NCBI RefSeq assembly: GCF_003334355.1
Contig: NZ_QOWP01000006.1
DNA length: 64,000 bases
Source: Escherichia coli
GTDB taxonomy: Bacteria > Pseudomonadota > Gammaproteobacteria > Enterobacterales > Enterobacteriaceae
Strand: one strand, 5' to 3'
Shown here: piece by piece, positions 19,091-23,581 of the stretch
Layout: each line of letters opens with the position of its first letter
Position numbering within the stretch: the stretch's first letter is position 1
Notes under the pieces: model-generated
Told to the model about the DNA's origin: nothing
The model's input: the letters and a program-made list of their open reading frames with translations, nothing else
The model's database searches: none
Position numbers and translations under genes: made by a program

Positions 19091-21505
19091 TCACCCCGCA
19101 AACTGCCTGAACAGCGCCTTACCCTTAACCAGTCTCGCGCCCAGCCAGCCGCCGAAAAGCGACAGCAGCAGCGCACCGCTGCACGGCAGAACAATCCACA
19201 ATCGCCAGTCTGGCTCCCACGGGAAATCAAACACTTTCGCCTGCAACACTGCCAGTGCCGTTTCCGCACCAATTGCGGCCACCAGGCCGGAAACAAACCC
19301 AAGCATGGCGAACTCACACCACAATGTCGTGCGCAGCAGTTTTTTCCCCGCACCGAGTGTGCGCCATACCACCAGCTCCTGATGACGCTGGCGCATTCCC
19401 ACCTGCACCTGTGCCAGCAACAGCAACATACCGCAGGCGGTGACCAGCACCACCATCACCTCCAGCGCCCGACTTACCTGCTCCAGCACCTGACCGACCT
19501 GTTTTAAAATCGCGCCAATATCTAACAGGCTAATGGTCGGGAACTGGCGGTTGAGTTGCGTCAACATGCCGTTGCCATTCTCCCAGCGGAAACTGGTAAG
19601 CCAGCTCTGCGGTTGCCCGTCTAATGCCCCTTCCGGGAAAATAAAATAGAAATTAGGCCGCAGACTTTCCCAGTCCACTTTGCGCAGGCTGGTCACTTTA
19701 GCGCGGAACTCCTGGGTATCGCCCATAAAAGTCACGGTATCACCGAGGGCAACGTTTAAGCGTTTCGCCAGCCCCTCTTCCATCGACACTTCATCGGCTT
19801 TTGGCGGCCAGTTACCGGCGACAATCGGATTATGATCGGGCCGCGTATTTTGCCAGGTAAGATTGAGTTCGCGATTAAGCGCCTCATCTTCATTACCTTC
19901 TGTCGGCTTATCGTTAATCGCCGTCAGCCGCGCCCGCACTACCGGATAAAATGATTCCGGGACTATATGATGTTCCGCGAGGAACGCTTTTAGCGGTGCT
20001 ACCTGTTCTGTGGCGATGTTAATTAAAAAGTAGTTCGGGCTTTCTGGCGGTAGCTGCTGCTGCCAGCGGTCGAGCAGATCGCCACGCAATACCAGCAACA
20101 GCGCCAGCAGCATAAAGGAGAGCGAAAATGCCGAAAGCTGACTTAACGTTGACCACGGCTGACGTAACAGGCGGCTAACCGCCAGGCGCAGAGGCAGCGA
20201 TTTCAGCGTCATGCGGCGAAGTACATTCAGCAGCATCCAGCCCAGCACACCGCACAGCAAAGCCAGTACTACCGCGCCCGCCAGCACCGCCCAAAGCAGC
20301 ATGCTGCCACCCATTAATCCGGCGAGCAGCAGCACAACCACCACACTGACAATCGGCAGATAAAACTTCAGCGGCCAGACGTTCGCTACCACATCATTAC
20401 GTAATACGCGTAAAGGCTGCGTTGCCAGCAACAAGCGATATGGTCGTAGCCCCACCAGCAGCGAGATGACCGTCATGGTGCCAAGCGCCCACAGCCACGG
20501 CCAGAGGCTGGCTGGCGGTAGTGCAGCAGGCAGAACGGGCTTGAGCAGCACCATCAACACGTTTTCGAACAACAGACCTATGGCCCCACCGGTAACGGCT
20601 GAAAGCGTCAGCACCATCAACCACTGACCGACGATTAGCTTACGCAGTTGCGCTCGCCCTGCCCCCAGCGTTTTGAGGATCGCCACCAGATCGTAGCGAC
20701 TGCGACAGTAATGATTCATCGCTACCGCCACCGCTGCCACTGCCAGCAGCAAGGTCAGAAGCGCCGAAAGCAGCAGGAACTGTTGCGAGCGTTCCATCGA
20801 TCGCCCCAGCGCGCCTTCGTCCTGTTCCAGACCGTACCAGCGTTGTTCGGGTTTAAGCTGAGGTAACAACCATTTCTCATAGCCGTCGAGCTGGTTCTCG
20901 TTGCCGCCGAATTTATAACGCCAGGTGACCCGACTCCCCGGCTGCACGGCTCCGGTTTTATCGACATCCGCCAGATTCATCATCAGACGCGGAGCCATCT
21001 GGAAGGGGTTAAAACCGGAATCCGGTTCCTGAATCACTTCTCCGGCAATCCGCAAGGTGGCATCGCCCACGTCAATGGTGTCGCCCGTTTTCAGGTTAAG
21101 CAGTGCCATCAGGCGTGGGGCCAGCAATACGCTGCCCGCCTGCGGTTTCAGGCCAGGGGGATTAGTTTGCAGATCGCCATACATCGGGTAGATATCATCC
21201 ACCGCTTTGACGTTCGCCAGCTGCGGTGTGTCGCCTGCAAAGGTCATTGTGGCGAAAGTCAGCTGCTTGCCGACTTTCAGGCCGCGCTTTTGCGCTTCCT
21301 CCAGCCACGCTTGCGGCACTTCGCGTGAACTGCGCAACGCCCGATCGCCCGCCATAAACTCACGGCTTTGCTGGCTTAAGCCCTTCTCCATGCGATCGCT
21401 GATATTGCCCAGCGCCAGCACGCAGGCCACCGCCAGGCTTAGCGCCAGCCAGACAATTAATAGCGACGGCGAACGCCATTCGCGCCAGAACCAACGTGCA
21501 ATCAT
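19091..21505 (-). CDS. ybbP: ABC transporter permease YbbP (804 aa, FtsX-like)
   Basis: 804-aa ORF, start overlaps ybbA stop. Confidence 0.9.
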   Translation of the reverse strand: MIARWFWREWRSPSLLIVWLALSLAVACVLALGNISDRMEKGLSQQSREFMAGDRALRSSREVPQAWLEEAQKRGLKVGKQLTFATMTFAGDTPQLANVKAVDDIYPMYGDLQTNPPGLKPQAGSVLLAPRLMALLNLKTGDTIDVGDATLRIAGEVIQEPDSGFNPFQMAPRLMMNLADVDKTGAVQPGSRVTWRYKFGGNENQLDGYEKWLLPQLKPEQRWYGLEQDEGALGRSMERSQQFLLLSALLTLLLAVAAVAVAMNHYCRSRYDLVAILKTLGAGRAQLRKLIVGQWLMVLTLSAVTGGAIGLLFENVLMVLLKPVLPAALPPASLWPWLWALGTMTVISLLVGLRPYRLLLATQPLRVLRNDVVANVWPLKFYLPIVSVVVVLLLAGLMGGSMLLWAVLAGAVVLALLCGVLGWMLLNVLRRMTLKSLPLRLAVSRLLRQPWSTLSQLSAFSLSFMLLALLLVLRGDLLDRWQQQLPPESPNYFLINIATEQVAPLKAFLAEHHIVPESFYPVVRARLTAINDKPTEGNEDEALNRELNLTWQNTRPDHNPIVAGNWPPKADEVSMEEGLAKRLNVALGDTVTFMGDTQEFRAKVTSLRKVDWESLRPNFYFIFPEGALDGQPQSWLTSFRWENGNGMLTQLNRQFPTISLLDIGAILKQVGQVLEQVSRALEVMVVLVTACGMLLLLAQVQVGMRQRHQELVVWRTLGAGKKLLRTTLWCEFAMLGFVSGLVAAIGAETALAVLQAKVFDFPWEPDWRLWIVLPCSGALLLSLFGGWLGARLVKGKALFRQFAG

Positions 21506-22188
21506 GCTTCCTCCTGCAACTGCCCGTTCACCAGCCGTAAGCAGCGGTCGCAGCGTGCCGCCAGTTGCAGGTCGTGGGTCACCATAATCAACGTGGTGCC
21601 ATGTTCACGGTTGAGGGAAAACAGCAGGTCGGCAATTTTATCGCCCGTCTGGCGGTCAAGGTTGCCGGTGGGTTCGTCGGCAAACAGCACATCAGGTCGA
21701 CCATTAAAGGCTCGTGCCAGCGCCACTCGTTGCTGTTCACCGCCGGAAAGCTGTGCCGGAAGATGATCCAGACGTTTACCCAGCCCTAACTGTTCGAGCA
21801 ACGCTTTCGCCCCGTTACGACTTTCCGCGCTACTCTCACCGCGCAGCAGAGCCGGAAGCTCGACGTTTTCCAGCGCGTTAAGGGTAGGAATTAACATAAA
21901 TGACTGAAAAACAAAGCCGACGTGCTTCGCGCGCAACTTTGCCCGCGCTTCTTCGTCCATATTATGTAGCGGTTGTCCCACCAGACTCACTTCGCCACTG
22001 CTGCCGTCATCAAGCCCGGCGAGGATCGCCAGCAAGGTTGACTTACCCGATCCCGACTCGCCCACCAGTGCGATGGTCTCGCCACGTTTGACAACCAGCT
22101 CAACTCCGGTGAGGATGGAGAGTTCATGCTCCCCCTGACCGACGGACTTCTTAAGATGATGAACTTCAACAATGTTTTCCGCTGGCAT
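21502..22188 (-). CDS. ybbA: ABC transporter ATP-binding protein YbbA (228 aa)
   Basis: Walker A GESGSGKST and signature LSGGEQQR. Confidence 0.9.
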   Translation of the reverse strand: MPAENIVEVHHLKKSVGQGEHELSILTGVELVVKRGETIALVGESGSGKSTLLAILAGLDDGSSGEVSLVGQPLHNMDEEARAKLRAKHVGFVFQSFMLIPTLNALENVELPALLRGESSAESRNGAKALLEQLGLGKRLDHLPAQLSGGEQQRVALARAFNGRPDVLFADEPTGNLDRQTGDKIADLLFSLNREHGTTLIMVTHDLQLAARCDRCLRLVNGQLQEEA

Positions 22189-22782
22189 TTGCCCTTCCTG
22201 TTCCTGGTCCTGTTAACCTTCCGTGCCGCCGCAGCGGACACGTTATTGATTCTGGGTGATAGCCTGAGCGCCGGGTATCGAATGTCTGCCAGCGCGGCCT
22301 GGCCTGCCTTGTTGAATGATAAGTGGCAGAGTAAAACGTCGGTAGTTAATGCCAGCATCAGCGGCGACACCTCGCAACAAGGACTGGCGCGCCTTCCGGC
22401 TCTGCTGAAACAGCATCAGCCGCGTTGGGTGCTGGTTGAACTGGGCGGCAATGACGGTTTGCGTGGTTTTCAGCCACAGCAAACCGAGCAAACGCTGCGC
22501 CAGATTTTGCAGGATGTCAAAGCCGCCAACGCTGAACCATTGTTAATGCAAATACGTCTGCCTGCAAACTATGGTCGCCGTTATAATGAAGCCTTTAGCG
22601 CCATTTACCCCAAACTCGCCAAAGAGTTTGATGTTCCGCTGCTGCCCTTTTTTATGGAAGAGGTCTACCTCAAGCCACAATGGATGCAGGATGACGGTAT
22701 TCATCCCAACCGCGACGCCCAGCCGTTTATTGCCGACTGGATGGCGAAGCAGTTGCAGCCTTTAGTAAATCATGACTCATAA
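22156..22782 (+). CDS. tesA: Acyl-CoA thioesterase I / lysophospholipase L1 TesA (208 aa)
   Basis: MMNFNNVFRWHLPFLFLVLLTF signal peptide then GDSLSAGY SGNH motif; start placed at the MMNF Met. Confidence 0.9.
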   Translation: MMNFNNVFRWHLPFLFLVLLTFRAAAADTLLILGDSLSAGYRMSASAAWPALLNDKWQSKTSVVNASISGDTSQQGLARLPALLKQHQPRWVLVELGGNDGLRGFQPQQTEQTLRQILQDVKAANAEPLLMQIRLPANYGRRYNEAFSAIYPKLAKEFDVPLLPFFMEEVYLKPQWMQDDGIHPNRDAQPFIADWMAKQLQPLVNHDS

Positions 22783-23581
22783 AGCAACGGAGATCCTGAC
22801 AGGTAAAGTTATGCAAAAATCGGTCTTAATTACCGGATGTTCCAGTGGAATTGGCCTGGAAAGCGCGCTCGAATTAAAACGCCAGGGTTTTCATGTGCTG
22901 GCAGGTTGCCGGAAACCGGATGATGTTGAGCGTATGAACAGCATGGGATTTACCGGCGTGTTGATCGATCTGGATTCGCCAGAAAGTGTTGATCGCGCAG
23001 CCGACGAAGTGATCGCCCTGACCGATAATTGTCTGTATGGGATCTTTAACAATGCCGGATTCGGCATGTATGGCCCCCTTTCCACCATCAGCCGTGCGCA
23101 GATGGAACAGCAGTTTTCCGCCAACTTTTTCGGCGCACACCAGCTCACCATGCGCCTGTTACCCGCGATGTTACCGCACGGTGAAGGGCGTATTGTGATG
23201 ACATCATCGGTGATGGGATTAATCTCCACGCCGGGTCGTGGCGCTTACGCGGCCAGTAAATATGCGCTGGAGGCGTGGTCAGACGCACTGCGCATGGAGC
23301 TGCGCCACAGCGGAATTAAAGTCAGCCTGATCGAACCCGGTCCCATTCGTACTCGCTTCACCGACAACGTCAACCAGACGCAAAGTGATAAACCAGTCGA
23401 AAATCCCGGCATCGCCGCCCGCTTTACGTTGGGACCGGAAGCGGTGGTGGACAAAGTACGCCATGCTTTTATTAGCGAGAAGCCGAAGATGCGCTATCCG
23501 GTAACGCTGGTGACCTGGGCAGTAATGGTGCTCAAGCGCCTGCTGCCGGGGCGCGTGATGGACAAAATATTGCAGGGGTGA
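22772..23581 (+). CDS. ybbO: Short-chain dehydrogenase/reductase YbbO (269 aa)
   Basis: TGCSSGIG cofactor motif and YAASK active-site motif. Confidence 0.88.
   Translation: MTHKATEILTGKVMQKSVLITGCSSGIGLESALELKRQGFHVLAGCRKPDDVERMNSMGFTGVLIDLDSPESVDRAADEVIALTDNCLYGIFNNAGFGMYGPLSTISRAQMEQQFSANFFGAHQLTMRLLPAMLPHGEGRIVMTSSVMGLISTPGRGAYAASKYALEAWSDALRMELRHSGIKVSLIEPGPIRTRFTDNVNQTQSDKPVENPGIAARFTLGPEAVVDKVRHAFISEKPKMRYPVTLVTWAVMVLKRLLPGRVMDKILQG

Follow-up and report, generated by a model that had tools for sequence, protein, structure and literature searches.

A genuine head-to-head coding overlap between tesA and ybbA of Escherichia coli, probably derived from an ancient spacer-less layout

Divergent overlaps constitute the rarest class of overlapping genes and are often mis-annotations. 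The divergent pair tesA/ybbA, for which 5' coding ends overlapping on opposite strands had been predicted, raises the question whether the shared segment is truly translated from both strands and, if so, where the two genes keep the signals that are needed for their expression. We analysed a stretch of 64,000 nucleotides that contains the pair (the window; positions are given in its numbering). The tesA/ybbA divergent overlap is not a mis-annotation. With a probability of roughly 80%, we consider it a genuine and obligatory head-to-head overlap of two translated genes, representing the derived enterobacterial form of an ancient tesA/ybbA layout without spacer.

The identity of the window is that of the E. 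coli chromosome: 1.5 kb spanning the junction matches many E. coli chromosomes at 100% identity, and this region was found in 5419 of the 5426 complete E. coli genomes. In the RefSeq annotation the minus strand carries ybbP and ybbA, and the plus strand carries tesA, ybbO and cnoX. The genes and the shared segment are the following.

19091..21505, minus strand: ybbP, permease; its start overlaps the ybbA stop by 4 nt
21502..22188, minus strand: ybbA coding sequence, 228 aa, ATP-binding subunit of the YbbAP type VII ABC transporter (ORF and RefSeq/K-12 annotation)
22156..22782, plus strand: tesA coding sequence (thioesterase I / protease I / lysophospholipase L1), 208 aa (ATG 22156) or 207 aa (ATG 22159)
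22772..23581, plus strand: ybbO; overlaps the tesA 3' end by 11 nt and forms the tesA-ybbO operon
22156..22188, both strands: dual-coding overlap, tesA codons 1-11 (MMNFNNVFRWH) antisense to ybbA codons 1-11 (MPAENIVEVHH)

Both genes encode real proteins, since TesA and YbbA match the structures 1IVN, 9GE8_T and 9GE6_B with an identity of 100% or close to it. The same-strand junctions also overlap: the stop of ybbA and the start of ybbP share 21502-21505 (ATGA on the minus strand), and the stop of tesA and the start of ybbO share 22772-22782, with the sequence ATGACTCATAA. To judge from their sequence, these overlaps suggest translational coupling inside each of the two operons. A search for Rfam families at 21400-22900 returned none, even at E<=1.

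At the divergent junction the window reads cttaagATGATGaacttcaacaatgttttccgctggCATttg at 22150-22191 (...cttaagATGATGaacttcaacaatgttttccgctggCATttgccc...), with plus-strand ATG codons at 22156 and 22159 and the minus-strand ATG of ybbA visible as CAT at 22186-22188. The two codon registers are exactly antisense, such that the ATG of either gene is a His CAT codon in its partner: M1 and M2 of tesA are the reverse complement of H11 and H10 of ybbA, and the ATG of ybbA is H11 of tesA. The 11 codons that the original prediction derived from starts at 22156 (+) and 22188 (-) match the 33-nt overlap in MG1655 (NC_000913.3; tesA complement(519139..519765), ybbA 519733..520419), whereas RefSeq PGAP takes tesA from the second ATG (22159), which yields 30 nt or 10 codons. 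The left boundary of 22126 in that prediction did not hold, as it is merely where the open tesA frame (a 218-aa ORF) has its first ATG, which is probably not the functional start.

On the side of ybbA there is no ambiguity. ATG 22188 is the sole usable start: an in-frame stop lies 9 codons upstream, and there is no other ATG, GTG or TTG between this stop and the ATG, or downstream before codon 42, which adjoins the Walker A motif. The protein is identical to the YbbA chains of PDB 9GE6/7/8 from residue M1 onward, the construct of 9GE6-8 beginning with MPAENIVEV... The ribosome-binding site is located within tesA:

22192..22199, minus strand: ybbA Shine-Dalgarno sequence AGGAAGGG, within tesA codons 13-15; anti-SD duplex -7.0 kcal/mol

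For the comparison between species the junctions of 17 Enterobacterales were aligned, drawn from 80 reference-genome loci that were fetched with TesA as alignment query. The TTCCT core of the ybbA Shine-Dalgarno sequence is kept across this alignment. Moreover, the conservation of both N-termini, proposed earlier as a check, was confirmed in that the tesA ATG pair is kept and ybbA has a single candidate start. More specifically, at least one ATG of the pair is always present, the first being absent in L008, L009 and L012, and the second in the Photorhabdus loci L017 and L018. Several species (e.g. L004, L017, L019) do not have any tesA start that avoids the overlap, and every usable start in the tesA frame of several species overlaps ybbA by at least 30 nt.

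A clear signature of dual coding was found in the synonymous variation. The third-position entropy of ybbA in the 17 Enterobacterales is 0.29 for codons 1-11, 0.88 for codons 12-21, 1.02 for codons 22-42 and 1.31 for codons 43-87; for tesA it is 0.30 for codons 1-11 versus 1.36 for codons 12-26, where the whole-gene means are 1.21 (ybbA) and 1.23 (tesA). The overlap is the 11-codon window of lowest entropy in both genes (rank 1 of 218 in ybbA and rank 1 of 198 in tesA), and the edges of low synonymous variation coincide with the start codon of the partner. At codon 3 of ybbA, the change that is seen affects the first position and alters YbbA, while Arg9 of TesA remains CGC or CGT. In addition, the residues that mirror the tesA ATGs are not His in YbbA proteins from outside the Enterobacterales. 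Taken together, the collapse of entropy, its boundaries, the change at codon 3 and the His10/His11 pattern indicate that tesA is translated through the overlap segment.

The N-terminus of TesA, MMNFNNVFRWH-LPFLFLVLLTF-RAAAA/ADT (the slash marking the cleavage site), comprises a charged n-region, a hydrophobic core and an A-x-A site, and mature chains start at A27.

22156..22233, plus strand: TesA signal peptide, residues 1-26, removed on export; mature ADTLLILGDS from 22234

Indeed, the PDB chains 1IVN and 9GE8_T (mature TesA) begin at residue 27, and the overlapping tesA codons thus encode the n-region of a cleaved signal peptide. The ybbA side of the overlap comprises the first 11 residues, ahead of the first conserved strand of the ATPase. 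Both shared segments are sequence-tolerant N-terminal stretches. Considering that the overlap is obligatory in relatives without another usable start and carries a strong signature of dual-coding conservation, the comparison argues that it is more than an accident of ORF calling.

A consequence of the layout is that the promoter of tesA has to be sought within ybbA. A weight-matrix scan over the whole 64-kb window gave its top promoter score to TTGACA-17-GAGGAT, with a predicted start near 22123. A strict consensus scan at 21800-22600 yielded no promoter; it missed this one because the -10 matches at only 3 of 6 positions. The prediction agrees with the published start of tesA, which Table S1 of Kim et al. 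2012 (PMC3415461) places 32 nt upstream of the ATG.

22088..22093, plus strand: tesA promoter -35, TTGACA, inside ybbA codons 32-34
22111..22116, plus strand: tesA promoter -10, GAGGAT, 17-bp spacer, inside ybbA codons 25-27
22124, plus strand: tesA transcription start site, 45 reads; 32-nt leader 22124-22155 (Kim et al. 2012, PMC3415461, tabulated start sites)

The published '-50+TSS' string of tesA equals window 22074-22124 exactly; the start thus lies 64 nt inside ybbA, and the sigma-70 hexamers, at 17-bp spacing, are found 7-8 nt upstream of the mapped 5' end. The promoter appears in the conservation as well. The third positions of ybbA codons 32-33, under the -35, are invariant in the alignment, positions A2, A5 and T6 of the -10 are kept among relatives (GAGGAT / AAGGAT / CAATAT), and the 11-codon windows starting at ybbA codons 22-27, which span the promoter, have the second-lowest synonymous variation in the gene. 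The hexamers are written in conserved YbbA codons, the -10 in Ile-Leu (xAGGAT) and the -35 in Val-Lys (TTGACx). The combination TTGAC(A/T)-17-xAGGAT recurs in Pectobacterium, an Enterobacterales MAG, Aeromonas and Shewanella (loci L013, L023, L028, L054 and L070), and was not seen in that form in Pseudomonas.

For ybbA, the candidates in the opposite direction are weaker.

22343..22377, minus strand: weak ybbA promoter inside tesA; -35 TTGCGA 22377-22372, -10 TGGCAT 22354-22349, start 22343
22530..22575, minus strand: further weak start sites in the ybbA direction inside tesA; Cappable-seq (about 22530) and Kim et al. (22575), from the published lists of sites

The tabulated data of Kim et al. 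(PMC3415461) contain a ybbA start at 518802(+) with 2 reads and a 155-nt leader, corresponding to window 22343, and another at 518570(+), also with 2 reads, 387 nt upstream of the ATG and corresponding to window 22575. The TTGCGA-17-TGGCAT element belonging to the start at 22343 was a joint top minus-strand candidate in the weight-matrix scan. Among the Cappable-seq sites on the genome plus strand (the ybbA direction) up to about 1 Mb, 518615(+), with a score of 2.45 and at about window 22530, is the one closest to ybbA, and the 2-read sites of Kim et al. do not coincide with it. An attempt to map the 5' end of ybbA specifically yielded no product (PMC2760140). The weak sites inside tesA are therefore only candidates for the main ybbA promoter. 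Hence, when the mapped start sites in the published tables are consulted, as had been suggested (45 reads at 22124 for tesA, 2 reads each at 22343 and 22575 for ybbA), the proposition that each promoter lies inside the other gene stands firmly for tesA, whose start at 22124 is within ybbA, and only weakly for ybbA, with its 2-read sites.

The two promoters face each other, with starts about 220 bp apart (22124 on the plus strand versus 22343 or further on the minus strand). A bidirectional back-to-back promoter was rejected, as the start sites of tesA and ybbA point toward one another. Given the published starts at 22124(+) and at 22343 and 22575(-), the mRNAs of tesA and ybbA are mutually antisense over at least 220 nt, a stretch that covers both translation-initiation regions. 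In fact, tesA-ybbA is among the 16 divergent excludons that ExcludonFinder reported for E. coli MG1655 on the basis of RNA-seq coverage in at least 50% of 58 samples (NAR 2025, PMC12288877).

The way in which the layout could act on expression can be pictured as follows. As there is no intergenic DNA, all initiation signals reside within the partner gene: the sigma-70 promoter of tesA in ybbA codons 25-34, the ribosome-binding site of ybbA in tesA codons 13-15 and the weak, putative ybbA promoters 155-387 nt into tesA. The promoters would fire at each other, and each mRNA would be antisense to the translation-initiation region of the other, so that interference through collision of RNA polymerases and through antisense pairing could be expected. 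The stronger tesA promoter would then hold ybbAP low, which is excludon-type behaviour and not co-induction. Moreover, a promoter embedded in the partner gene would lock tesA and ybbA together, which would explain their near-universal synteny.

Because the promoters are convergent and the mRNAs mutually antisense, any coupling between the expression of tesA and ybbA, as had been proposed, would probably be interference and not co-expression. The start-site reads in the tables of Kim et al. (PMC3415461; 45 for tesA versus 2 for each ybbA start) fit this model, as does the response to an inhibitor of LolCDE, although both should be taken as hints only. In that study ybbA is found in the table of induced genes, at 4.2- and 6.6-fold for two doses (PMC5105897), and the main text mentions neither tesA nor ybbP. 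The same data hint at an envelope-stress response of ybbA that is independent of tesA (PMC5105897). On the other hand, TesA and YbbAP form a physical complex (PMC12646458), and positive co-regulation might therefore have been expected.

The position of the E. coli overlap in a wider context follows from a comparison across the Gammaproteobacteria. In essentially all of the 80 loci, a divergent ybbA-ybbP pair immediately precedes tesA. To describe the junction independently of annotation, we used the anchor distance D between the glycine codon of the tesA GDS motif and the Walker-A glycine codon of ybbA. D equals 193 in Enterobacteriaceae, 196 in Yersinia, Photorhabdus, Providencia and Acerihabitans, 241 in Pectobacterium (all 1 mod 3), and ranges from 194 to 312 elsewhere. 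When the start of each gene was chosen by rules that take no account of its partner, an overlap of exactly 2 nt was obtained in 21 loci from 11 non-enterobacterial genera, where a single CATG provides both start codons. These include Vibrio, Photobacterium, Psychromonas, Rheinheimera, Halomonas, Oceanisphaera, Marinobacterium, Nitrincola, Cycloclasticus and Dokdonella, plus gammaproteobacterial MAGs.

Junction at about 2430-2500 in each locus, shared CATG, part 1: L021, L022, L024, L026, L027, L029-L031, L035-L039
Junction at about 2430-2500 in each locus, shared CATG, part 2: L042, L048, L057, L058, L064, L074, L079, L081

The TesA peptides that are read from the shared ATG resemble textbook signal peptides. 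The shared CATG is kept despite many in-frame insertions and deletions on both sides. In six loci the overlap is -3 to 0 nt, and Pseudomonas has a gap of 10 nt that contains the tesA Shine-Dalgarno sequence. Considering the near-zero spacing across the Gammaproteobacteria, the enterobacterial overlap of 30/33 nt is best seen as a derived variant of an old zero-spacer layout. The literature searched contained no description of the shared-CATG architecture or of its conservation in divergent genes. In Candidatus Pantoea persica (L020) only fragments of ybbA (residues 140-190) and ybbP (210-285) accompany a partial tesA match, which would fit a decay of the entire locus in the reduced genome of this symbiont.

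The overlap could be real and nevertheless have no regulatory role. The start codons may have drifted neutrally into two permissive N-terminal segments and subsequently have been frozen, since the signals of each gene came to lie inside the other and the arrangement could not be undone cheaply; we take this as a serious possibility, albeit one with less than even odds. The overlap length indeed differs by lineage, from 2 nt in many, -10 in Pseudomonas and 30/33 in Enterobacterales to 75 in Pectobacterium, and twelve loci have spacers of 19-109 nt. Moreover, only a cleaved signal-peptide n-region and an N-terminus ahead of the first strand are affected, and in Pectobacterium (L013, L014) an insertion of 48 nt between the anchors, read in both frames and leading to an overlap of 75-78 nt, has been tolerated. 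In that genus YbbA has acquired an N-terminal extension of 15 residues through loss of the ancestral ATG, and the TesA signal peptide is longer. However, the near-zero spacing has been kept across orders despite many insertions and deletions on either side, 17 of the 28 distinct D values outside the Enterobacterales equal 2 mod 3 (binomial P=0.003, the lineages not being independent), and the spike at +2 is found in 11 genera. The spacing pattern argues for active maintenance, though a ratchet could produce the same, and the RNA-seq classification of tesA-ybbA as an excludon (PMC12288877) likewise speaks against the absence of a role. It is conceivable, if somewhat unlikely, that the E. coli overlap belongs to an interlock of tesA and ybbAP that is ancient and actively maintained, and in which all promoters and ribosome-binding sites of either gene are written in the codons of the other. 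If that is true, a periplasmic lipid hydrolase and the ABC transporter to which it docks would be ratio-fixed or reciprocally expressed, and the pair would be inseparable by rearrangement.

The reading of an obligatory overlap of 30/33 nt depends on the start of tesA, for which the public gene calls disagree: TesA is given as 194, 197, 204, 207, 208 or 218-220 aa, and even as more than 300 aa. Many database entries have 230-400 aa (e.g. P0002, P0003, P0038, P0039 and P0121), with an ORF that was stretched into the antisense strand of ybbA. The N-terminal extensions of these entries are almost certainly artefacts. Two other codons deserve attention.

22126..22128, plus strand: upstream in-frame ATG (218-aa ORF) after an SD-like GGAGAG (both within 22117-22128); probably not a functional start
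22189..22191, plus strand: TTG, the tesA start picked by overlap-avoiding callers (197-aa form); rejected

A start at ATG 22126 would produce a precursor of 218 aa and an overlap of 63 nt (21 codons). It has the strongest anti-SD pairing among the candidates (-8.4 kcal/mol) owing to the GGAGAG in front of it, the tesA frame is open from there, gene calls in several genera give 218-220 aa, and the synonymous suppression in ybbA codons 12-21 is intermediate (0.88). However, with transcription starting at 22124 the GGAGAG is outside the mRNA and the AUG has a leader of 2 nt. Furthermore, the codon is replaced by CTG in L003 and L005, TTG in L015, ATT in L017 and GTT in L040, and the synonymous constraint loosens at ybbA codons 13-14 and 19-21. 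As main start of tesA, ATG 22126 was rejected because of the position of GGAGAG upstream of the mapped start site and the loss of the ATG in five genomes, and we regard it as improbable. Minor initiation may occur there, and even then the same mature enzyme would result.

That tesA starts at TTG 22189, right after the ybbA start codon, with 197 aa and no coding overlap, so that the conserved 33 nt would merely be leader and ribosome-binding region of tesA, is very improbable: although many automatic calls give a TesA of 194 or 197 aa beginning with MPFLFL..., the K. pneumoniae annotation in the tables of Kim et al. (PMC3415461) carries a tesA of 594 nt, and Shine-Dalgarno pairing is nearly absent at ATG 22156 and 22159 (-3.2 kcal/mol), that of the TTG is weaker still (-1.5 kcal/mol), the codon is not conserved (TGG in L004, CTT in L015, TTA in L017-19, TTT in L040), in those species no start downstream of the ybbA ATG would give a workable signal peptide, the signal peptide resulting from a TTG start would lack a charged n-region, and the conserved Arg9 is situated in the overlap, where the changes that preserve it are synonymous in the tesA frame and non-synonymous in that of ybbA. 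The TTG was rejected on account of its lack of conservation and the uncharged n-region.

The evidence thus supports a TesA of 207/208 aa that starts at the ATG pair 22156/22159. Either of the two codons may be the initiator, as cleavage of the signal peptide hides the initiator Met from direct observation. The literature searched contained no initiation-site ribosome profiling or N-terminomics data on tesA or ybbA and nothing relevant on promoters of tesA or ybbO, and Table S7 of Kim et al. 2012 (PMC3415461) lists no revision of tesA.

The overlap in E. coli is in itself already known, from the K-12 annotation, the YbbAP-TesA structure paper, the excludon catalogue and the published start site of tesA. 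Only the conservation of the CATG and the zero spacer across species is possibly new. Nevertheless, the interlocked signals have practical implications. Deletion or re-engineering of tesA, common in fatty-acid engineering, removes the ribosome-binding site and promoters of ybbA, and deletion of ybbA removes the promoter of tesA; single-gene phenotypes at this locus are therefore likely confounded. Moreover, as the TesA-YbbAP complex is known, it is a concrete and testable question whether the interlocked layout sets the TesA:YbbAP stoichiometry.

The arrangement can be compared with several known systems. The study of the YbbAP-TesA complex (PLoS Biol 2025, PMC12646458; PDB 9GE6-9GE8) concerns the same genes and notes their overlap, where the linkage serves as evidence for the protein interaction. 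Its main text uses neither 'promoter' nor 'signal peptide' and apparently leaves start codons, promoters and the conservation of the junction aside. With the divergent excludons (PMC12288877) tesA-ybbA shares the opposite strands, the facing promoters and the overlapping 5' regions of the transcripts. However, in most divergent excludons only untranslated regions overlap, whereas here the coding sequences do so and intergenic DNA is absent. Like other antisense overlapping genes of bacteria, tesA and ybbA have experimentally supported proteins that are encoded by the same 30-33 nt, with suppressed synonymous variation; unlike long embedded antisense genes, their overlap is limited to short N-terminal segments in which change is tolerated. 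Finally, as in bidirectional promoters, two opposite transcription units run from one short stretch of DNA, but where the starts of a bidirectional promoter point away from a shared core, those of tesA and ybbA point toward each other.
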